IMG/VR virus record: IMGVR_UViG_3300020331_000002
Origin: a virus
Taxonomy: Duplodnaviria > Caudoviricetes
DNA length: 64,000 bases
Reading direction: 5' to 3' (one strand)
Below the pieces are notes generated by a model. That model saw nothing but the letters and a program-made list of their open reading frames with translations, did not search any database and was not told where the DNA came from. The position numbers and the translations under genes were made by a program. This document shows positions 45,016-62,572 of this stretch, in pieces (position 1 is the stretch's first letter; every line of letters begins with the position of its first letter).

Positions 45016-45486
45016 TTAGTTTCCAGGATGTCTACGATGCCATTCGCGCTCTTGTTCAGCTTCGGCGTCGTCGTGCCATTGTTGCTTTTCGTCACTTGTT
45101 GCTTCGAACTCAATCTCAGAGCCATTCACATCATATGTGACATTGTCGAAATACTTCTCGTTCGTGTCGAAGAATTCCTGCACTTGGTCTGGGTTCGCTG
45201 TGCGCTTTGCTTCGCTAGCCAAACGCTGGATTTCTTTGTCAGTGATGTAATCGTTTGGACCAAACGAATCGGAGTTGGCGATTTCACGATCCATGTAAAT
45301 CTCTACCGGATCCTTAGTGCCTGCCATCTTATTGAGATAACGTAGCATAGATACTAGGAGTTCTGCCACTGCCATGTTTTGACACATGTAGAATTGATCG
45401 TCTACACTGTGGTCAATAACAAGAGCAAGGTCTACGTTTAAAGAGCTCTCCATGAGCTTTGTTGATTTGGTGATTTTATCAAACAT
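45016..45486 (-). CDS. acidic late protein, candidate internal head protein
   Basis: CTAAATA at 45523; N-terminal …KLME. Confidence 0.6.
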   Translation of the reverse strand: MFDKITKSTKLMESSLNVDLALVIDHSVDDQFYMCQNMAVAELLVSMLRYLNKMAGTKDPVEIYMDREIANSDSFGPNDYITDKEIQRLASEAKRTANPDQVQEFFDTNEKYFDNVTYDVNGSEIEFEATSDEKQQWHDDAEAEQEREWHRRHPGN

Positions 45487-48631: not shown

Positions 48632-48898
48632 TTAATACGAACGTCGCTGCCCGGCTCTTATTTGCGAGTAGCCTGACTTGGACTTTACTTCGCCGATGGC
48701 GTCGACACAATGGTTTATCGACTTATCAATGCTGCGGCCTAGCTCATCCAATTCTTCATAGTCACCGAGCTTGGGTTCATGTATCTTGTTAAATCTTTCT
48801 TTAATGCGTGTGAGGTCTCTGTGGATAGACTCCAGCACGCCCAAGTCGCCTGGAGATTCTAAAAGTAGTGCTATTTGTTTGAAATCTTGATTGTTCAT
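48632..48898 (-). CDS. late small protein
   Basis: TTAAATA at 48921; N-terminal …LLLE. Confidence 0.6.
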   Translation of the reverse strand: MNNQDFKQIALLLESPGDLGVLESIHRDLTRIKERFNKIHEPKLGDYEELDELGRSIDKSINHCVDAIGEVKSKSGYSQIRAGQRRSY

Positions 48899-53452: not shown

Positions 53453-53998
53453 TTAAGATACTACTTTGACCCACTGGTTATAAAACGCATCGCGACCAAA
53501 GCCAAGGTACATATCGTCACCAACGAGAACAAGAGCTACTTCACGTGAACTTGTCTTAGTTGCGGACGGATTAGGTGCCGCAAGATATTTGCTCCAGTCA
53601 GCACTAACGATACCGTGTTTGTCAAGAACGCTTTCGATATCTTCATAATAAACAACGTTATTGCCGTGGCCTATTTGGCGCCAATTAGAAGGCTTAGTGT
53701 TCCACTCTGCACCCAAGTCATGTAACGCTTGGTAAATTTCACTTACTGCGTCATCGTCTTGTTCTGTTATCGACATTAGCTTACGCATTGCGCTAGGCTG
53801 TTCAGCACTTTCGTCCATATCTTCGCCTATTTCATCAGCCATCATGTCTTCAAAGTCCATAAGCTTATTCATGATATTATCATAAAATGCTTTGACTTTA
53901 TCTGATGATGCTTGATCATCGACTTGAAGCATCAAGTAATTGCGCTCTTTAGTCAGCGCATTATAAGTGGCGTTCGCCAATGAGTTAAATTTTGACAT
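53453..53998 (-). CDS. candidate internal head protein (internal MRKLMSITE motif)
   Basis: Internal copy of the family motif. Confidence 0.55.
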   Translation of the reverse strand: MSKFNSLANATYNALTKERNYLMLQVDDQASSDKVKAFYDNIMNKLMDFEDMMADEIGEDMDESAEQPSAMRKLMSITEQDDDAVSEIYQALHDLGAEWNTKPSNWRQIGHGNNVVYYEDIESVLDKHGIVSADWSKYLAAPNPSATKTSSREVALVLVGDDMYLGFGRDAFYNQWVKVVS

Positions 53999-54038
53999 TC
54001 TGATATCCTATTCTTTTTATTTTTCGTTATTAGGATTT

Positions 54039-54114
54039 TGGAGCGGGTAACGGGGCTCGAACCCGTGGCCTCTACCTTGGCAAGGTAGCGCTCTACCAAC
54101 TGAGCTACACCCGC
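54039..54114 (-). tRNA. trnG: tRNA-Gly(GCC)
   Basis: CTACC-TTGCCAA-GGTAG, CCA. Confidence 0.95.
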
Positions 54115-54122
54115 ATAATTGG

Positions 54123-54371
54123 TTATTCGCCTACGTACTCGTGATACTTTTCACAATGTCGATCTGAACAAGTCTGGTCAGTATAAGTCATAGTACCGCA
54201 TTCAGGACAAGGAATACTTCCTTCTCTTCCTTCACGCACTTGGGATTCGCTTCTGCGAGAACGGCGCTTATCTGAGCTTTCCGGTTGGTTTATGTCAGCT
54301 TGTTGATCGTCGTGGCCCATGCTATCACTTTCAGTAATGGCATTCATAAATTTACGCATTGTATCAGACAT
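54123..54371 (-). CDS. candidate internal head protein with Cys4 zinc finger
   Basis: MSDTMRKFMNAITE; CPEC…CSDRHC; CTAAATA at 54396. Confidence 0.7.
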   Translation of the reverse strand: MSDTMRKFMNAITESDSMGHDDQQADINQPESSDKRRSRRSESQVREGREGSIPCPECGTMTYTDQTCSDRHCEKYHEYVGE

Positions 54372-54394
54372 TAGTATGTCACTCCTATTTTTAG

Positions 54395-54790
54395 TTATTT
54401 AGCATGTTGCTCAAGGACTGATCTATTATCTTCTTCATCCGGATGCTTGTTTCTGCGTGCATCGGCTTCTTGCCTCATACTGACTAAATGCTTGCCGGGC
54501 TTACCGAGTACCACATCGTGAATAGGTTCTATACGTATAGTATCAATAATTTGACAATACTTTGCTCTTAACTCGTCACTTATCTTAGTATACTCGGTAC
54601 GCGAGCCAAAAAAGAAATTACTAACTTCTTTAGGAGATCCTGCGATTAACCATTTTAGATGATTGACTGTTTTACCGATTCTTTCAACTAAATGGCCGTA
54701 ATTGCATCCCGCAACAAGTGAGTCACCGTCTAAAAGAAATTCAGTATCACCATCTTTCAAAGTGTAAACAACGATGTATATTTTGGCCAC
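54395..54790 (-). CDS. hypothetical protein
   Basis: ORF track. Confidence 0.55.
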   Translation of the reverse strand: MAKIYIVVYTLKDGDTEFLLDGDSLVAGCNYGHLVERIGKTVNHLKWLIAGSPKEVSNFFFGSRTEYTKISDELRAKYCQIIDTIRIEPIHDVVLGKPGKHLVSMRQEADARRNKHPDEEDNRSVLEQHAK

Positions 54791-54811
54791 AGTATTGCCT
54801 CGTTAAGAAAT

Positions 54812-54963
54812 TGGGCGAGCCGCCGGGATTCGAACCCGGGAATACAGAATACTTCCGCTATTTGCATTTCACTTGGCATTGTCCGTACCTTTAAACCCCT
54901 CATACCAATACTTGGCTTAAAGAACCGATGCACCGATTCTTAAAGTTGCAAGGAGTCAGCCCG
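54812..54963 (-). ncRNA. 152-nt tRNA/tmRNA-like RNA with G3:U70 acceptor stem
   Basis: CGGGCTG/CGGCTCG + C + CCA; T arm CCGGG-TTCGAAT-CCCGG; no D or anticodon arm. Confidence 0.7.
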
Positions 54964-54973
54964 ATTGTTAAAA

Positions 54974-55053
54974 TGGCGCAGGTGTAGGGAGTCGAACCCT
55001 CAAGTCTCTCGACACGGTTTTGGAGACCGCTTTGCTCGCCAATGCGCACCTAC
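54974..55053 (-). tRNA. trnW: tRNA-Trp(CCA), atypical (V-arm hairpin, weak D arm)
   Basis: GCGGT-CTCCAAA-ACCGT; GTC-GAGA-GAC variable stem. Confidence 0.75.
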
Positions 55054-55242
55054 TTAATTCAAATTACCTAGTATCGCAGTAAGCACGATACCGACTTCTA
55101 GTCCCAGTAAAACGCCTACACAAGCGCAGGGAATCATATAACGATATTCACTCTGCCGTGCATGGACAGGTTTTCTTGCATAGAACACCAACGGTGCAGC
55201 CATGCCTAATAACAATCCGATAATACCGCATACGATTATCAT
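55054..55242 (-). CDS. small membrane protein
   Basis: Two hydrophobic segments. Confidence 0.55.
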   Translation of the reverse strand: MIIVCGIIGLLLGMAAPLVFYARKPVHARQSEYRYMIPCACVGVLLGLEVGIVLTAILGNLN

Positions 55243-55259
55243 AATTCACCCAAATAAAT

Positions 55260-55344
55260 TGGTACGGATGGAGAGACTTGAACTCTCACGTCTTTCGACA
55301 CTGGAACCTAAATCCAGCGTGTCTACCAATTCCACCACATCCGC
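55260..55344 (-). tRNA. trnL: tRNA-Leu(UAG)
   Basis: CTGGA-TTTAGGT-TCCAG, long V arm, CCA. Confidence 0.93.
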
Positions 55345-55348
55345 GTTG

Positions 55349-55948
55349 TTACTTTTTAACTTTCTCGCCGAGCGGAAGATCGTCTAGCTCATACGCTTCG
55401 TAATCGCCGAGCACCGTCTCTGCGTGCTCTATTGCATCTTCCACTGACCAAAACGGTTTAGGTGGTATATCATCTTCATGATCACCTAACCCTTTTGCTA
55501 CGTACCGTCTTGTATCTAACATTAGGTACACATTAAAGCGCTCATACGGGTCTTTGTATTCTATGAATGCCTTAAACTCGTATAAAGGCAATAAATCGTC
55601 TAACAACATATTCGTACATCCTTATGGTATACGAATATTTATGCATTTGATTTAATGCTCGAAAATATCGTCGCAGGTTATTTCACCATCAATTACGGCT
55701 CTAACTAGCGCACGTTTTTCGTCAGCTTTTCCAATAACGGGACAACCAGCAGTTTCAAAGTAAAAATCACACTTATTACAACCTGCGTTGGTTGAGCCTG
55801 ATACAAAATCTTCGAACGTTGGTGTCATCATGGCCAACGCTTGCTCGCGCTGCATATCATACGAAGCAACAACTTTATCAATGGCGGTTGCTAGATGATT
55901 GATGAACCATGCTCGTAGATCATTTGAAATCTTTATACCTTTGCGCAT
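55349..55948 (-). other. two hypothetical CDSs (55349-55609 late; 55652-55948)
   Basis: ORF track; ATAAATA at 55636. Confidence 0.6.
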
Positions 55949-56028
55949 AAGTAAACCTCATGTGCTATCTAAAACATAGCGTTAGTATAAGGCCTTTTTT
56001 AGCATTGTAAAGACTTATCTGGCATAAA

Positions 56029-56059
56029 AAATGCGGCTAACTTTCGTTGCCGCATTTTG
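56029..56059. terminator. intrinsic terminator-like hairpin
   Basis: AAAATGCGGC…GCCGCATTTT. Confidence 0.7.
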
Positions 56060-56080
56060 TGAACTACTTAATTTAATTTA

Positions 56081-56488
56081 CTAAGCAGAACGCATAATTG
56101 TGGCATAAATTTCTAACAGGTCGTTGAGTTGGAAAACTTCTTCTTGTAGAAAGTCGATTGCTTCCATAGCAACGTCGTTGCCGTATCCTACACGCTTAGC
56201 CCAATCAAAAAAGTACTGCTCAACAGCACGGTATTGATCGTCGCTAGCTGTACCGAAGTTAGAGATACCGAATTGCTTGAGGAAGCGGCCAGGGCGACGG
56301 CGTTTCATCTCAGCTGTGATTTCCCACGCTACGTGAACGATTTGCTCAGGCACGCCATAATCGCTAGCAAAGTCCATGACTTCTTCAGACTCAATTGTAG
56401 CGCCAGGCAGGGCAGCAATGTCAGCAGCATATTGACCAACTTCTGAATCTTCTTCAGTCATAAGGTTCATAATTTTTCTCATATCCAT
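56081..56488 (-). CDS. candidate internal head protein
   Basis: MDMRKIMNLMTE; TCGTACTAAATAC upstream. Confidence 0.7.
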   Translation of the reverse strand: MDMRKIMNLMTEEDSEVGQYAADIAALPGATIESEEVMDFASDYGVPEQIVHVAWEITAEMKRRRPGRFLKQFGISNFGTASDDQYRAVEQYFFDWAKRVGYGNDVAMEAIDFLQEEVFQLNDLLEIYATIMRSA

Positions 56489-56591
56489 AAAGCGGTCTCC
56501 TTTAAAATGCTAATTGGAATGGTTGTCGCATGCATATCTCGCATAAATTACAAGAGTATTTAGTACGATATCGCATTGCTAGTTTCGAATA

Positions 56592-56792
56592 TTATCGCCT
56601 TATCAGTTCTACACGACATTTTCGCTTTATTTTGGCAGAAAGTTTTTTTGCTTTGGCCTGTAAGCGAAGCCACTCAATGGCAATTTCGTTGCCGTGGTCA
56701 CTTTCTATATGCAACATTCTTTCTTCAAGTTCGCCGATGCGATCGAGAACCTCAGCTTCCTTCTTAAGCAGTTTCAGGAGTTTATGTGACAT
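56592..56792 (-). CDS. small coiled-coil protein
   Basis: ORF track. Confidence 0.55.
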   Translation of the reverse strand: MSHKLLKLLKKEAEVLDRIGELEERMLHIESDHGNEIAIEWLRLQAKAKKLSAKIKRKCRVELIRR

Positions 56793-56807
56793 TATGTGCC
56801 TATAATA

Positions 56808-56884
56808 TGGCAGGTGCGGCAGGATTCGAACCTGCGACCCTTGGCTTAGAAGGCCAATGCTCTATCCAGCTGCGCTACGCACCC
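56808..56884 (-). tRNA. trnR: tRNA-Arg(UCU)
   Basis: TTGGC-CTTCTAA-GCCAA, CCA. Confidence 0.95.
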
Positions 56885-56896
56885 ATTAAAGATGAT

Positions 56897-57190
56897 TTAA
56901 TCAAACGGCCAGTTCGGGTCTTGTTCAGAGAATTCCATCATAGAGCCATGGAAATCAAGGTTAATTGAACCTACCTTAGCTTCGTGATAAAATATACCTA
57001 TCACCGAGTCGTCTTGGTTGTATATTACCTCAACACGGTGCCCGTCAATTTCTGACTGTTCAATGTCGTCGCTGCTAACCTCCATGGTGAGGTCTTCCCA
57101 ACGACTGTAATTAACTTTTTTGAAGTTTCCGGATTCAGTAAGTGGCTTACCTTCCATCACGTTCATAAATCCGCGCATTGTATCTGACAT
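56897..57190 (-). CDS. candidate internal head protein
   Basis: MSDTMRGFMNVME; CTAAATA at 57216. Confidence 0.7.
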   Translation of the reverse strand: MSDTMRGFMNVMEGKPLTESGNFKKVNYSRWEDLTMEVSSDDIEQSEIDGHRVEVIYNQDDSVIGIFYHEAKVGSINLDFHGSMMEFSEQDPNWPFD

Positions 57191-57460
57191 ATTAAGTTAT
57201 CCTATATAATGTACGTATTTAGTGACAGTGGCTCAACTACTGTATATTAAGACTCACTCTCGTGTATCTTCTTCCACTGTTCAACAGCATCAAAAAACAA
57301 GTCACTCACGGCATCTGCACCGGCGTCTGCAATAGATATCATCGTTTCTGAATCGTTCCATTGCGAGAGCCACTTCATGGTTTCATCAAACCATTTAATT
57401 TTATCTTCGTCTGTCATTATGTATACGCCTTTAAAACAGTACACACTTGCAAATTTAATT

Positions 57461-57544
57461 TGGTGCACGGTGTGGGACTCGAACCCACACGCCTAAGGCC
57501 ACGGCTTTTAAAGCCGCTATGTCTACCAATTTCATCACCCGTGC
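57461..57544 (-). tRNA. trnL: tRNA-Leu(UAA)
   Basis: GCGGC-TTTAAAA-GCCGT, long V arm, CCA. Confidence 0.93.
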
Positions 57545-57555
57545 ATGAAAGACAG

Positions 57556-57987
57556 TTAGATAACTGCCTTTGCGATTGCTGAAGCCGATTTACCGTCGTA
57601 CAAGCCTTCGTGATTAGCTTTAAGGTGCTTCATCACTTGGCCCATATTACAACCAGGGTTGGCTTCTACGAATGAAACGATTGTGCCTCTCAGCTCATCT
57701 TCATTCATTTGTTTAGGAATGTACCCGTTTACCACGTCAAGCTCAAGCTCATAAGCGGCAAGCTCTGATACCTGATTGCGCTCTTTCATGTTAGTGATAG
57801 TTTCATCAATTGACTTGACGAACTTTTTGCACACTTGCACAACCTCTGCATCAGTCGATAGACGCTTTCCATCGTCTAAGCCGATGCGCGAAGCTTCAGA
57901 ATACAACGTGGTTAAAATACTAACTCTGGCGCTGTCTCGTGCTTTCATAGCTGCCATACGGTCAGCCTTTATCTTTTCTATCAACAT
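57556..57987 (-). CDS. yqeY: GatB/YqeY domain protein
   Basis: IKADRMAAMKARD…YIPKQMNEDEL…MGQVMK…DGK. Confidence 0.9.
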   Translation of the reverse strand: MLIEKIKADRMAAMKARDSARVSILTTLYSEASRIGLDDGKRLSTDAEVVQVCKKFVKSIDETITNMKERNQVSELAAYELELDVVNGYIPKQMNEDELRGTIVSFVEANPGCNMGQVMKHLKANHEGLYDGKSASAIAKAVI

Positions 57988-58004
57988 TTCTTTGTTTCCT
58001 TCGG

Positions 58005-58234
58005 TTATGTGCCGGCTACAGTGTCGCGGTAAGCGGTGTCGAGTTTCCCAACAACTTTTACTTTCATAATACGGTGCGGCGGGTAGTGTTCAAAATATTC
58101 TTCGCCTTCGGGGTTTTCAGGATTGTGGCGATAGCCAGTTGCAACAATAGCGGAAGAGTGTTCGCGGGCTTTATTTGCGTTCGCCACGTTGTATTTGAAT
58201 ACTCGGCCATCGTCAATGTAAACTTGGATTTCCA
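58005..58234 (-). CDS. hypothetical protein
   Basis: Start at MEIQVY. Confidence 0.6.
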
Positions 58235-58307
58235 TTAGTGTTACTCCGTGTATGTAGAAATGCAGGATCATGTCGCCAAACACTCACCTGCATTGAGGAC
58301 AAACTAA

Positions 58308-58661
58308 TTAATAATCGTCGGTAGGATCAAACACAAGATAAGTATAACGGCCGCCATATGCATTCACTGTGTGAACACGAGCGTATACGCCGCCTTCAGT
58401 GTCTACGCCACGATTACTACCGTAGGCTACTTGCACCTTAGATCCGTGCTTGGCTTTCACTTTTTGCAAGTCACTGATCAACTCGTCGATGTCATGTGCG
58501 CCAGATATTCTGTCGCCTGCATCTTCGTGCGGTTCATCTTCATCATCGTCTGGCATGTCGTAATCGTCTTCATTAACTTGTTCGACGTTCTCTTCAACAG
58601 CCCTGTTTTGTTCTGTTTCATCGCCAATGGCATCCATCAGCGAGCGCATATAATCCGACAT
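58308..58661 (-). CDS. candidate internal head protein (start corrected to MSDYMRSLMDAI)
   Basis: CTAAATA at 58690 and GAGGAG RBS lie inside the longer tracked ORF. Confidence 0.7.
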   Translation of the reverse strand: MSDYMRSLMDAIGDETEQNRAVEENVEQVNEDDYDMPDDDEDEPHEDAGDRISGAHDIDELISDLQKVKAKHGSKVQVAYGSNRGVDTEGGVYARVHTVNAYGGRYTYLVFDPTDDY

Positions 58662-58713
58662 GTAGTTCTCCTCGTTGTCGCTTTCTTTGTATTTAGCTAC
58701 GACAAGGTCGATA

Positions 58714-58788
58714 TGGTAGAGACACCGTGGGTCGAACACGGAGCACCAGCCTTATGAGAGCCGGGCGAATACCTTCCATTCTGTCTCT
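58714..58788 (-). tRNA. trnM: tRNA-Met(CAU)
   Basis: CGGCT-CTCATAA-GGCTG; AGAGACA/TGTCTCT, CCA. Confidence 0.8.
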
Positions 58789-58794
58789 AGTATT

Positions 58795-58884
58795 TGGCGG
58801 AGAGTACAGGATTCGAACCTGTGCGCCCCTTTCGGGACTCTCGATTAGCAGTCGAGCGCGATAGACCTACTCTGCCAACTCTCC
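58795..58884 (-). tRNA. trnS: tRNA-Ser(GCU)
   Basis: CTCGA-CTGCTAA-TCGAG, long V arm, CCA. Confidence 0.93.
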
Positions 58885-58891
58885 TTTAAAC

Positions 58892-58988
58892 TAGTACCAG
58901 GTACGGGATTCGAACCCGCAGGGTCATTATTGCAGACCGCGACAAGCACTTCCGTGATGCCGCGCCTTCCCATTCGGCGCAACCTAGT
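58892..58988 (-). tRNA. atypical tRNA, CGG (Pro) at anticodon position; A33, 25-nt V region, CTA end
   Basis: ACTAGGT/ACCTGGT, D and T arms intact; loop CACGGAA. Confidence 0.55.
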
Positions 58989-58991
58989 ATA

Positions 58992-59085
58992 TGGCGGTGA
59001 GGGTGGGATTCGAACCCACGGCCGATGTTACCACCGACGTTTGATTTCAAGTCAAGTGCAATAAACCAGACTCTGCCACCTCACC
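58992..59085 (-). tRNA. trnS: tRNA-Ser(UGA)
   Basis: TTGA-CTTGAAA-TCAA, long V arm, CCA. Confidence 0.92.
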
Positions 59086-59241
59086 ATAAACCTTTACAAG
59101 CTGTTTATATCAGCTATAGCTTCTTTGAGAGATTCACGCGCACGTTTTTCGCGCTCGAGTTCTTCAACTCTTTTTTCTAGCTTTTTTACAAGCTTAACAA
59201 GATCACCGTGTGTCATTGTCATTGTGAACCTCTATTTAATA

Positions 59242-59279
59242 TGGCGCCGGCCCTGCGATACAACAGGGGATCACCCGGC
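59242..59279 (-). ncRNA. 38-nt CCA-ended minihelix
   Basis: GCCGG-GTGATC-CCCTG-TTGTATCG-CAGGG-CCGGC-G-CCA. Confidence 0.5.
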
Positions 59280-59288
59280 ATTGTAAAC

Positions 59289-59363
59289 TGGTAGGTTAGG
59301 TGAGTATCGAACTCACTACAACTGCTTTGTAAGAACAGCGCCTCACCTGTCGGCCTCTAACCT
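59289..59363 (-). tRNA. trnV: tRNA-Val(UAC)
   Basis: CTGTT-CTTACAA-AGCAG, CCA. Confidence 0.88.
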
Positions 59364-59370
59364 ATAATTC

Positions 59371-59667
59371 TTAAACTGCTTCGTGTGTAAACTTACACAT
59401 TACTCGGTAGAATATCTGCGTTGCAGCATACTTGTCGATATTGTCAAGAAACATTTGGAAGAACTTCTTCTCCGAGTCACTATTGTCCATAGCAACTGCT
59501 TTATTCAAAGTATCTACATATGTTTCTCTAGGAATCAACATAAAGTTTGCGTATTCTACACGACCCCATTCGATTAACTGCTTAAATGTTTCGGGGTCTA
59601 ACTCCGCTTTAAGCTCGTTGACGCGCTCTGTAAGCTCGTCTATGAAGTTATTTTTGTAATCTTCCAT
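59371..59667 (-). CDS. hypothetical protein
   Basis: ORF track. Confidence 0.6.
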   Translation of the reverse strand: MEDYKNNFIDELTERVNELKAELDPETFKQLIEWGRVEYANFMLIPRETYVDTLNKAVAMDNSDSEKKFFQMFLDNIDKYAATQIFYRVMCKFTHEAV

Positions 59668-59786
59668 AACGTTACTCGTTAAGTTTTAATCTATAATAGC
59701 ACGTCTGTAGAAGCTTACAAGAATAATTTCTACTTTATTTAAAAATAAAAAAGTGCCAAAGTAATTACTACAATGACACCTTAAAA

Positions 59787-59859
59787 TGGTTGCGGGTGCA
59801 GGTAACGATCCTGCCGGTCCTGGGTTATGAGCCCTGGTTGAACACCATGTTCACCCGCG
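59787..59859 (-). tRNA. trnfM: initiator tRNA-fMet(CAU) copy 1
   Basis: C1:A72 mismatch, GGG/CCC anticodon stem; unusual ATCGTTA T loop. Confidence 0.8.
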
Positions 59860-59866
59860 ATAGATT

Positions 59867-59945
59867 TGGTTGCAAGGGCGGGATTTGAACCCGCGTCCGC
59901 TAGGGTTATGAGCCCTGCCATCTGCCAGACTGATTGTACCTTGCT
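59867..59945 (-). tRNA. trnfM: initiator tRNA-fMet(CAU) copy 2
   Basis: 1:72 mismatch, GGG/CCC anticodon stem, CCA. Confidence 0.85.
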
Positions 59946-59951
59946 ATTGTT

Positions 59952-60031
59952 TGGCGCGGCAGGTAGGAGTCGAACCCACATGTTTCCAATTACTCTTTCG
60001 ACTGGTTCGTAGCCAGAGGAGATACAACCGC
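59952..60031 (-). tRNA. arm-rearranged tRNA-Arg(ACG)-like RNA
   Basis: Acceptor, 8-nt linker, CTGG-CTACGAA-CCAG, then GAG-TAATTGG, T arm, CCA; no 5' D arm. Confidence 0.7.
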
Positions 60032-60041
60032 ATTAAACTTT

Positions 60042-60536
60042 TTAACCTTTTTCGTCAAGAAGGATATCTGTTATAATTTCTTCAAATGCGTGGTAGTCTT
60101 CCATACCATCCCAATTGCCTTCGTTATAAAAAATATCCGTCGTTAGTGATACTATCTCGCGTCGACGATTACGTGGCATTGCCTTCCAATCATCTATCGA
60201 AGTAACGCCTTCTCTACGCAAGGCCGACAAAATAGCAACAGAAAAACTGTCATCATTGTTGCCTGACTTATTAGCATCATTTAACACCGAATCTATCATA
60301 TCAGCAAACATTGCTGAATCCGGCATCGCTTCATCGTCAATCCAGCCATGATTGTAAAACAAGTCACTAGCTTGATCGCCGTAGCGATATTTTTCGCGTC
60401 TTGACAACGCGTTCCAGTCAGCCAGTGTGTTGATATTATCACGAGCTAACATCTGCAATACACCTGACTTAACAACGGCATCGTTACCGCTAGTGTCTTC
60501 CATCAAGTTCATTAATTTTCGCATCTGATCTGACAT
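60042..60536 (-). CDS. candidate internal head protein with internal duplicated domain
   Basis: MSDQMRKLMNLME; two similar halves (L.R..I.(T/S)..DW.A..R…D(L/I)FYN.G.). Confidence 0.7.
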   Translation of the reverse strand: MSDQMRKLMNLMEDTSGNDAVVKSGVLQMLARDNINTLADWNALSRREKYRYGDQASDLFYNHGWIDDEAMPDSAMFADMIDSVLNDANKSGNNDDSFSVAILSALRREGVTSIDDWKAMPRNRRREIVSLTTDIFYNEGNWDGMEDYHAFEEIITDILLDEKG

Positions 60537-60545
60537 AAATGTTCC

Positions 60546-61025
60546 TTATTTGATCTGCAATATGCTTGCTACTTGTCGTAATGCGACTTCGCGCATCGCT
60601 TGCGACTTGTATCTTTCTTGCATAAAACTCAAAAGTTGGTTTATGCCATCTTCGAAATCATCATACGCAGAGTTAGGGTCACCAATACCGTAAGCACCGA
60701 TGATAACACCGTTAGCAAAGTATTCACCGTCTTCTGCTATTTCAAGGACTTCGGCTTCTTCTTTAGCTTGCGCGGCCTGGATGACCTTAGTAGCAAACTC
60801 GTACGGAGCCATAGCGCCATATGATAAGAGTTGCTTGCCTACTTTTTGCGTATAAGACTCTACCGAACCTTGTTCTATACCGTATATTAACGCCGACGCT
60901 TTATCGTAAAACTGATCAACTGATATAGCATCAGAGTTTTCCGAAATAGCTGTGTCAATATTTTGATTTAATGGCTCGGATTGACCTTCCATTAAATTCA
61001 TTATTTTGCGCATCTGATCTGACAC
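60546..61025 (-). CDS. candidate internal head protein
   Basis: MSDQMRKIMNLME; GCGTAAATAAGCTATAT upstream. Confidence 0.7.
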   Translation of the reverse strand: MSDQMRKIMNLMEGQSEPLNQNIDTAISENSDAISVDQFYDKASALIYGIEQGSVESYTQKVGKQLLSYGAMAPYEFATKVIQAAQAKEEAEVLEIAEDGEYFANGVIIGAYGIGDPNSAYDDFEDGINQLLSFMQERYKSQAMREVALRQVASILQIK

Positions 61026-61075
61026 TTAGTATCTCCTATAAACTATTCGTATATAGCTTATTTACGCATTTAAGT

Positions 61076-61152
61076 TGGAAGGGGTGGCAGGATTCGAACC
61101 TGCGAGTACCGGGATCAAAGCCCGGGGCCTTAGACCGCTTGGCAACACCCCT
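61076..61152 (-). tRNA. trnQ: tRNA-Gln(UUG)
   Basis: CCGGG-CTTTGAT-CCCGG, CCA. Confidence 0.93.
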
Positions 61153-61158
61153 ACAAAC

Positions 61159-61235
61159 TGGTCGGTGTAAGACGACTTGAACGTCTGACCCCTTGGTCCC
61201 AAACCAAGTGCTCTACCAAACTGAGCTATACACCG
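61159..61235 (-). tRNA. trnP: tRNA-Pro(UGG)
   Basis: CTTGG-TTTGGGA-CCAAG, CCA. Confidence 0.95.
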
Positions 61236-61241
61236 TTTAAC

Positions 61242-61319
61242 TGGTTGTCCCTGCTGGATTTGAACCAGCGATCAGCGATTATCAGTCGCACGCTTTAGAC
61301 CAGACTAAGCTAAGGGACA
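61242..61319 (-). tRNA. trnI: tRNA-Ile(GAU)
   Basis: GCGA-CTGATAA-TCGC, CCA. Confidence 0.92.
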
Positions 61320-61327
61320 ATAAACCT

Positions 61328-62428
61328 TTATCGTTTACGTAGAGTAATCTCAACGCCTTTAATTGCATTGAGTTCATCTACGATTTGTTGAGGATCTACC
61401 TCTATGTCGGTACGACGTCTAGGCACATACTCAATGTCTCTACCTATTAATTGAATACGTTTAGGCAAAACACGCAATATAAACGGACCACCAACCTGTA
61501 GATTTCTATTAGTTAGGTCATAGTAATAACCGAGCATTTTGAGCGCTTTCGCCACTTCGTCCGATACTACTTGTTTTTTCACCTGTTTTGATGGCTTGTC
61601 CGAAACGACATACTCTTCTGCAGGTGTATCGTCGTCATACTCAAGTGCTAACTCAACCACAGCCTTTACGTGTTTCTTTGCAATAAACAAAACGCCGTCG
61701 TCCATGTCATGCTCTTCGTCATCTAATTCAAGATCCGAAACAAGACCAGCGATTTCACTTGCTGACCACCCGGGCATGGTTAATTGTACCATATTACGCT
61801 TGGACTCTCTGACTGACTTTTTCGGACCGTTGCTTTGGCTAGCATAATACTTACTGAACTCTTCGTCAGCATATTCAGCCATTTCTTCAATGAAATCCCA
61901 GCGAGGGCCATCTTCAGCATATGCCAAATCCGGAACTATTTTTGTCAGCACTTCGTTTTCAACTGCCGACCCATCATCATCTAGAATTGCGCGGGTCAAG
62001 TCATGTAAGCGATCTCTGTCGTCGCCAAATAACTCGTTGCCAGCGTCATGTGCCATGCCATCTAATTTAGACATCAAACGGCCGAAAACATGTCTTCTTG
62101 CTTTAGCATGAATGTTCTGCGATTCTTGAGATTGTTCTGCTATTTGTATATCAAACGATACGCTACCGTAGCCGAGCTTGGCAATTGCCCTTTCAACGGC
62201 GTCTTCGTTAGTTCCAGAGAACGTTACAAAAGCAACTAAATCACGGCCTCTTATTTCAGCCTCGTGTACTTGACCGTATTCATCAAGGATATCTTCAATA
62301 GCATAACCGTCGCTACTATCAACACCTGATACGACCACACGGTAGCGGCCTTCTAAGCGATACTCTTCGGCGCTTTCGTTAACACCTTCAACTAAATTCA
62401 TTAATTCGCGCATTTTTTCAGACATCAT
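61328..62428 (-). CDS. candidate internal head protein (multi-domain, acidic)
   Basis: MSEKMRELMNLVE; GCGTAAATAAGCTATAT upstream. Confidence 0.7.
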   Translation of the reverse strand: MMSEKMRELMNLVEGVNESAEEYRLEGRYRVVVSGVDSSDGYAIEDILDEYGQVHEAEIRGRDLVAFVTFSGTNEDAVERAIAKLGYGSVSFDIQIAEQSQESQNIHAKARRHVFGRLMSKLDGMAHDAGNELFGDDRDRLHDLTRAILDDDGSAVENEVLTKIVPDLAYAEDGPRWDFIEEMAEYADEEFSKYYASQSNGPKKSVRESKRNMVQLTMPGWSASEIAGLVSDLELDDEEHDMDDGVLFIAKKHVKAVVELALEYDDDTPAEEYVVSDKPSKQVKKQVVSDEVAKALKMLGYYYDLTNRNLQVGGPFILRVLPKRIQLIGRDIEYVPRRRTDIEVDPQQIVDELNAIKGVEITLRKR

Positions 62429-62472
62429 TGTCTCCCATAAACTATGTCATATAGCTTATTTACGCAGGTAAT

Positions 62473-62572
62473 TGGTGGACCCCCGCGGACTTGCACCACA
62501 CGCCTCAATACTACCCCCACTTTATTTCTTTTAAGACACCGGATTTACAGTCCGGGGTGGGGAAAGGGATCC
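62473..62572 (-). tRNA. arm-rearranged tRNA-Tyr(GUA)-like RNA
   Basis: GGATCCC/GGGGTCC; CCCCAC/GTGGGG stem enclosing CCGGA-CTGTAAA-TCCGG; T arm, ACCA. Confidence 0.7.

Follow-up and report, generated by a model that had tools for sequence, protein, structure and literature searches.

In bacteriophage T4, propeptides of 10-19 residues target proteins to the scaffolding core and are removed by gp21 (PMC9026906, PMC9958956). As reviewed in PMC9026906, PMC9958956, and PMC3012670, Mullaney and Black (1996) described the capsid-targeting sequence (CTS) of the internal proteins IPII and IPIII, together with the related gp21-removed propeptides of IPI, Alt, and gp24. Within the CTS, targeting is the role of residues 4 and 7 and processing that of residues 8 and 10 (P3 and P1), and the internal proteins of T-even phages are diverse defence proteins with only the CTS in common (PMC9026906, PMC9958956, PMC3012670), which also applies to the diverse open reading frames (ORFs) of their hypervariable internal-protein loci (Repoila et al., 1994, cited in PMC9026906; PMC3012670). 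In the phiKZ-like giant phages (phiKZ, 201phi2-1, and SPN3US), the propeptides of head and ejection proteins are cut at S/A/G-x-E (PMC9026906, PMC5694885, PMC10052503), and the Dar anti-restriction proteins of phage P1 have N-terminal packaging determinants (PMC9024508, PMC12810830). Here, we describe a family of proteins sharing a Met-rich N-terminal leader, encoded in a 64,000-nucleotide stretch of DNA (hereafter the window; bases 22685-86684, minus strand, of the 310,672-bp genome in the IMG/VR record IMGVR_UViG_3300020331_000002) from an uncultured marine jumbo phage having a T4-type head module. By analogy with T4, we see an even chance that the 13-residue leader is a lineage-specific variant of the T4 capsid-targeting system, through which cargo would be loaded into the capsid.

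The consensus MS[DE]xMRxφMNφφE (φ, hydrophobic; x, any residue) was found in exactly eight ORFs of the genome, and these were the very ORFs for which a first-pass annotation of the window had noted an MRKLMNLME-type peptide. Seven of them carry it at the N-terminus and one internally, and all are located on the minus strand within a 9-kb stretch of a tRNA-rich region (15 of the 17 tRNA genes of the window, every one on the minus strand). A search of all six frames of the whole genome with the regular expression MR.[FILMV]M[NDS] matched these eight ORFs only, as against 0-2 matches in each of ten shuffled genomes, which bore out the family at the genome scale. Likewise, a 15-column hidden Markov model (HMM) of the leader scored the eight members at 21-30 bits and the next-best ORF at 5.9 bits, and a de novo screen for shared N-termini in this genome recovered the leader family along with a second family having the anchor MPIRFRGPV. 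The members and two possible outlying members are as follows (arrow, putative cleavage position; pI, isoelectric point).

61328..62425, minus strand: g62428, 365 aa, pI 4.7; leader MSEKMRELMNLVE↓G, then βαββαβ (predicted), a helical middle, and C-terminal domains
60546..61025, minus strand: g61025, 159 aa, GTG start, pI 4.3; leader (M)SDQMRKIMNLME↓G
60042..60536, minus strand: g60536, 164 aa, pI 4.4; leader MSDQMRKLMNLME↓D; starts 9 nt 3' of g61025
58308..58661, minus strand: g58661, 117 aa, pI 4.1; divergent leader MSDYMRSLMDAIGDE, without a canonical φ-x-E
56897..57190, minus strand: g57190, 97 aa, pI 4.3; leader MSDTMRGFMNVME↓G; an extra LTE↓S at residues 18-20
56081..56488, minus strand: g56488, 135 aa, pI 4.3; leader MDMRKIMNLMTE↓E
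54123..54371, minus strand: g54371, 82 aa, pI 5.0; leader MSDTMRKFMNAITE↓S; Cys-rich C-terminal body
53453..53998, minus strand: g53998, 181 aa, pI 4.4; internal AMRKLMSITE↓Q at residues 70-80 (window ~53759-53791)
48632..48898, minus strand: possible outlying member, late gene of 88 aa; leader MNNQDFKQIALLLE↓S; TAAATA at -28; kept in the sister phage
45016..45486, minus strand: possible outlying member, late gene of 156 aa; leader MFDKITKSTKLME↓S; TAAATA at -42; kept in the sister phage

The conserved Arg of the leader is encoded by four codons across the members (CGC, CGA, AGA, and CGT) and the hydrophobic position by six different codons, and the upstream DNA is alike only in the pair of g62428 and g61025. 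This synonymous variation, together with the unlike upstream DNA, shows that selection acts on the peptide and not on an RNA or DNA element. The leader comprises 13-14 residues, is rich in Met, and has Arg at position 6; in the AlphaFold2 models of both g62428 and g60536, residues 3-13 were predicted to form a helix that is followed by a disordered linker. It usually ends in L-M-E↓G, V-M-E↓G, L-V-E↓G, L-M-E↓D, or I-T-E↓S, in all of which P3 is hydrophobic, P1 is Glu, and P1' is small. A clean φ-x-E followed by a small residue was recognized in five of the eight members; MTE↓E and ITE↓Q fit looser rules only, and AIGDE fits neither.

As for its distribution, a tblastn search of 50,697 records of cultured phages with the leader as query gave no match, and degenerate DNA patterns of the leader searched in IMG/VR and the JGI metagenomes retrieved only this phage type and a sister type, the latter comprising the genome G001, MDTA01088739.1, and Tara contigs. 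Tara assemblies also contain the phage itself. A further pattern match, in L003, was out of frame and was dismissed as chance. Across IMG/VR, the JGI metagenomes, and cultured phages, the exact leader is thus confined to this lineage. In a more distant relative (G002, 250 kb), the de novo search for shared N-termini detected no Met-rich family and one T4-like pair only.

The best evidence for a targeting and cleavage signal was provided by the comparison with the sister phage (G001; 306.5 kb), whose DNA is 86-94% identical to that of the window's phage in this region. The canonical leader is kept on five of its orthologues, and in the other three genes the segment from the TAAATA box (see below) to the end of the linker has been replaced, with sharp borders, by unalignable DNA. 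The replacement leaders read MSERIRRILE↓G and MSKYDKTNKKLLSKLTE↓S, the internal copy has become …RIQAILE↓S, and an extra gene having no counterpart in the window's genome starts with MADRNRVNKILE↓G. In these new leaders, φ-x-E-G/S is situated at residues 10-17. The motif φ-x-E-G/S at residues 9-18 is rare in the window's genome, being present in only 14 of 374 other genes (3.7%). It is found in both N-terminal replacements and in the leader of the extra gene, three cases of three and far more than chance would give, which suggests that what is constrained is the Glu site and its fixed distance from the N-terminus. The swapped leaders can be read as a natural mutagenesis, in which the required features would be a helix and then hydrophobic-x-Glu-Gly/Ser at residues 10-17.

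The leader also behaves as a module. In the g62428 family, it is followed by domains A, B, and C in the window's phage, by B and C in the sister phage, and by A and C in the protein P0002, and it has hence been retained despite the loss of either adjacent domain (A in the sister phage, B in P0002). P0002 is 69% identical to g62428, and its leader is changed only at positions where the paralogues also vary. Between the window's phage and the sister phage, N-terminal remodelling was observed in four of the eight family genes, as compared with about 2 of 36 neighbours failing end-to-end alignment. The tRNA region of the sister phage further contains a 142-aa ORF with an HNH-type motif (…HIDGD…CPNCH…; L002:9036-9464, minus strand), for which a counterpart was not noticed in the window; it may encode a homing endonuclease and can be likened to segB, the homing endonuclease gene of the T4 tRNA cluster.

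The genome encodes a Peptidase_S77/gp21 prohead protease (PF03420, 85.5 bits; genome 207322-207957, minus strand), homologues of gp20 (portal), gp23 (major capsid protein, MCP), and gp25, and an acidic gp67-like core protein, the order of the head genes being gp67-like, protease, scaffold, and MCP. Its own scaffold protein has a leader, MSVNKVLKNAQLSE↓S, of 14 residues that ends in L-S-E↓S and aligns with AELTE↓D in 78 relatives, the first 14 residues of the gp67-like protein end in …LLINE↓D, and in the MCP the place that corresponds to the T4 gp23 cut has VLE↓N and LRE↓S; judging from these sites, the T4 cleavage rule has plausibly been retained in this clade. According to the T4 record, the leaders of IPII/IPIII (MKTYQEFIAE↓A), Alt (MELITELFDE↓D), gp24 (MAKINELLRE↓S), and gp22 (MLKEQLIAE↓A), as well as the 19-residue leader of IPI (ending ITE↓A), all end in φ-x-E and a small residue, and the ipII, ipIII, and ipI genes are arranged around the tRNA cluster, all on one strand, in a setting that resembles the locus in the window. 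The apparent likeness of the leader to the N-terminus of the gp67-like protein (MSESRSKLEEILE…) was statistically unsupported and was set aside, as was that to the C-terminal helix of the protease (…LMKAITG…, …MLMALIKE…). The latter helix (…SMLMALIKE…; …HLMKAITGFINE… in relatives) loosely resembles the leader variants …KLMNLME and …KFMNAITE at ~1 bit, a likeness that is not statistically supported and serves as a lead only, for the idea of mimicry.

TAAATA, which matches the core of the late promoter of T4, TATAAATA, was enriched 10-fold in the 80 nt upstream of genes, more than any other word. The genome contains 177 copies of it, of which 77 are in the intergenic 7.5%, usually 25-45 nt 5' of start codons, and it occurs upstream of the gp67-like/protease/scaffold/MCP operon, the pre-portal gene, and the gp25-like gene. 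Within the locus, six of the eight family genes are preceded by it at a distance of 30-74 nt, as listed below, and it was also found at two of the nine interspersed non-family genes.

62457..62462, minus strand: TAAATA of g62428, 37 nt upstream; 35-nt context near-identical to that of g61025
61059..61064, minus strand: TAAATA of g61025, 39 nt upstream; directly after tRNA-Gln
58690..58695, minus strand: TAAATA of g58661, 34 nt upstream; directly after tRNA-Met
57216..57221, minus strand: TAAATA of g57190, 31 nt upstream
56557..56562, minus strand: TAAATA of g56488, 74 nt upstream
54396..54401, minus strand: TAAATA of g54371, 30 nt upstream

The assignment for g56488 is less certain because the 74-nt distance is unusually long. 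The arrangement of g60536, 9 nt behind g61025, is operon-like, and no TAAATA was detected within 120 nt upstream of g53998. The first-pass annotation had assigned a TAAATA late promoter to each gene or operon with the N-terminal motif; this description fits six genes and the operonic g60536, and is slightly overstated once g53998 is counted. By position and enrichment, the TAAATA sites appear late-promoter-like, and sigma-70-like (early) sites were no more frequent than in shuffles.

Downstream of the leader, the proteins are unrelated, as the first-pass annotation had maintained: the leader-stripped bodies showed no mutual similarity (best E, 0.88), had no paralogues in the genome, and matched no family of Pfam or PHROGs. 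Two homology searches over 5.8 billion proteins detected almost no homologues outside this lineage, and no function was found in the ESM Atlas. A Foldseek search of the PDB, conducted with the AlphaFold2 model of g60536 only (helix 3-13, disordered 14-18, and two helical repeats thereafter), gave no match, the model of g62428 being too low in predicted local distance difference test score (pLDDT, 53.5) for a structure search. Domain A of g62428 (residues ~27-94) was predicted as βαββαβ at a pLDDT of 67-78 and contains an RNP1-like stretch, RGRDLVAFVTF; it may be similar to the RNA recognition motif (RRM) or to ACT. In g53998, the internal motif is placed between an N-terminal helical part and a C-terminal domain. 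All eight proteins are acidic, with pI values of 4.1-5.0 versus a genome median of 5.35. Since the bodies match no known family or fold, analogy is all that supports the proposal that they are a rich source of anti-defence proteins.

On the reading that we favour, the leader is a capsid-targeting propeptide. The family genes would be transcribed from the TAAATA late promoters along with the head genes, the amphipathic Met-rich N-terminal helix would dock the protein on the prohead scaffolding core, and the gp21-type prohead protease would cut after the Glu of the terminal φ-x-E, thereby freeing the body inside the capsid. The freed body would then be delivered with the DNA or, less interestingly, be degraded in the capsid, and new cargo genes would arise by recombining a promoter-leader cassette onto a new body. 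Docking, cleavage, packaging, and injection of the tagged proteins are steps that we infer. The T4-like signal envisaged in the earlier annotation is in agreement with the gp21-type protease, the head module, the late-promoter-like position, the predicted helical leader that usually ends in φ-x-E, its modularity, and the kept site in the swapped leaders; the acidity of the cargo does not conform to it.

A number of observations weigh against this reading. The cleavage sites of two members are poor (AIGDE and MTE↓E), one copy of the motif (in g53998) is internal, and the φ-x-E rule was partly defined post hoc, when the data had already been inspected. The HMM of the leader missed the scaffold, gp67-like, and protease proteins and gave no significant match among the head-module ORFs of 80 relatives. 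A phmmer search with T4 gp55 found no match in the genome, so that "late" is here an assignment from position and enrichment only; as the Pfam sheath family PF04984 had no match in the genome either, neither a late sigma factor nor a sheath is named. In addition, packaging and cleavage are argued from the sequence of an uncultured phage. No similarity in sequence links the leader to the T4 CTS (MKTYQEFIAE), P4 is Asn here versus a hydrophobic residue in T4, and the cargo is acidic (pI 4.1-5.0) versus the basic IPI-III of T4 (pI 8.9-9.5), although foreign proteins can be packaged by T4 through the CTS (PMC3012670).

The genome furthermore encodes proteins that resemble T4 internal proteins more closely, and these also speak against the proposal. 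An 81-aa basic protein (pI 9.2; G000:C1:180279-180524, minus strand) starts with the T4-CTS-like MTTLKEFVQE↓A and may be a classical internal protein; a loose pattern of the T4 CTS matched no other N-terminus in the genome (and one internal site). A small protein of pI 11.5 (G000:C1:147776-148111, minus strand) shows the junction …INE↓ARRVW, for which a distant jumbo relative, G002, has the conserved counterpart …ILE↓ARMVW (G002:C1:32859-33146, minus strand). It looks like a propeptide followed by a DNA-condensing internal protein, and a 778-aa protein of G002 is headed by the same type of leader as this very basic protein (MLLEDFTKPVIKE↓A). Because the proteins with a T4-like leader or a very basic pI are the better-looking candidates for internal proteins, the Met-rich leader would represent a second code; several different propeptides are used in T4 as well (PMC9958956). 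We entertain, as a tentative possibility, two orthogonal loading codes, one ancestral and T4-like (…KEFVQE↓A, and …INE↓A on the very basic, presumably DNA-binding protein) and the other a younger Met-rich 13-mer for fast-changing, acidic, possibly DNA-mimicking effectors, where tag cassettes behind tRNA genes would recombine and tag and cargo would be independent modules. Two unrelated proteins (G000:C1:146405-146725 and 184601-185161, both on the minus strand) start with the 9-residue leaders MRIDEIINE↓S and MKINQIITE↓T, which are similar to that of T4 gp24 (MAKINELLRE↓S), the second being preceded by a TAAATA box; they may constitute another small leader class.

Other explanations of the shared leader were considered alongside. 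The helix might be a handle by which the proteins dock onto another shared partner (part of the virion, a chaperone of the phage, or a protein of the host), without capsid entry or proteolysis; the genome does have another shared tag, the 47-residue N-terminal anchor (MPIRFRGPV) on lectin-like proteins, the connection of the leader to the head is not a direct link, and the leader is unlike the T4-like leader of the same genome. Such a handle fails to explain, however, why φ-x-E-G/S appears at residues 10-17 in all the non-homologous replacement leaders or why the leader is always followed by a disordered linker in the two AlphaFold2 models, and we regard it as rather unlikely. We are still more doubtful that the leader targets the prohead on proteins that are expendable accessories of the core or scaffold, degraded to acidic peptides like T4 gp67/gp68 rather than injected. 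The strong acidity of all eight members would suit this role, being shared with T4 gp67 (pI 4.1), T4 gp22 (pI 4.6), and the phage's own gp67-like protein, as would the additional φ-x-E sites in the linkers of several members (LTE↓S, VNE↓S, and ISE↓N). Diverse, non-paralogous, and partly globular bodies (βαββαβ and helical repeats, as predicted) are unexpected for filler, however, and their fast modular turnover is better suited to accessory effectors.

It is very improbable that the shared N-terminus is a functionless passenger of a cassette consisting of the promoter, ribosome-binding site, and first codons that was spread by recombination near tRNA genes. The near-identical promoter and 5'-untranslated region (~35 nt) of g62428 and g61025 and the sharp-bordered, cassette-like replacement between the sister phages would be in line with such spreading, yet the upstream DNA of the other members is not conserved, up to four synonymous codons are used at conserved residues, the internal copy lacks a promoter, and the 69%-identical orthologue P0002 has altered the leader only at paralogue-variable positions. 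Scarcely any weight can be given to the leader being the recognition sequence of a modifying or degrading enzyme, as would be a degron, the target of a radical S-adenosylmethionine (SAM) partner, or the leader of a ribosomally synthesized and post-translationally modified peptide (RiPP). The sole radical-SAM-like match (PF04055, 19.3 bits) is below the Pfam cut-off and ~35 kb away, the interspersed genes encode the YqeY protein and ORFans, with no enzyme domain among the neighbours, and the bodies, at 82-365 aa and folded, are unlike RiPP cores.

The IMG/VR record has direct terminal repeats and a completeness rating of 100%, and no near relative of the window's phage was found among cultured phages. 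About 480 IMG/VR contigs contain a prohead protease ~60% identical to its own, and three long contigs with a related protease that were checked were rated as fragments of roughly 350-380-kb genomes; the phage is thus one branch of a clade of marine jumbo phages that is widespread and belongs to the T4 superfamily. Several leader genes begin immediately behind tRNA genes (tRNA-Gln, tRNA-Met, and tRNA-Gly), and a segment just 5' of the g62428 promoter (window ~62465-62500, minus strand) resembles the 3' half of a tRNA (…GGTGCAAGTCCGCGGGGGTCCACCA), with no call by ARAGORN. A YqeY-like protein (PF09424, E 3.8e-21; window 57556-57987, minus strand) is encoded amid the tRNA genes. A 236-aa protein (window 63384-64094, minus strand), also kept in the sister phage, combines a signal-like segment at the N-terminus with a PEP-CTERM sorting motif at the C-terminus (PF07589, E 1.4e-5), which hints at an exosortase-bearing host.

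If the favoured reading is correct, the address label and cut site of T4 would be no peculiarity of T-even coliphages but a general device that the T4 superfamily, abundant ocean jumbo phages among its members, has re-invented. The leader would then be available as a second cargo tag, unrelated in sequence to the first, by which foreign proteins could be brought into capsids, and the eight (perhaps ten) acidic proteins would be candidates for delivery along with the DNA of a marine giant phage.

Compared with the T4 CTS, the leader is likewise a short N-terminal peptide on unrelated proteins that usually ends in hydrophobic-x-Glu and a small residue, in a phage with a gp21-family protease, a T4-type head module, putative late-type promoters, and family genes around a tRNA cluster. 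It differs in its length (13-14 residues versus 10), in having no sequence similarity, in its Met-richness, Arg at position 6, and Asn at P4, and in its eight members plus variants with acidic cargo and one internal copy. The T-even internal-protein loci share with the present locus the fast-turnover ORFan bodies, the constant leader, and the cassette-like exchange between close relatives, whereas here the leader is also swapped for non-homologous versions and the locus is interleaved with ~15 tRNA genes. The phiKZ-like phages similarly process many head-internal proteins after Glu by a related protease and have redundant propeptide sites, although their propeptides are long rather than a shared short tag and have a small, not hydrophobic, P3. 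In phage P1, the anti-defence cargo also enters the head through N-terminal determinants, but P1 belongs to another phage lineage and has no common short cleavable tag. While the principle itself is known from T4, the present family has a new tag sequence, acidic cargo, leader swapping, and a T4-like leader co-existing in the same genome.

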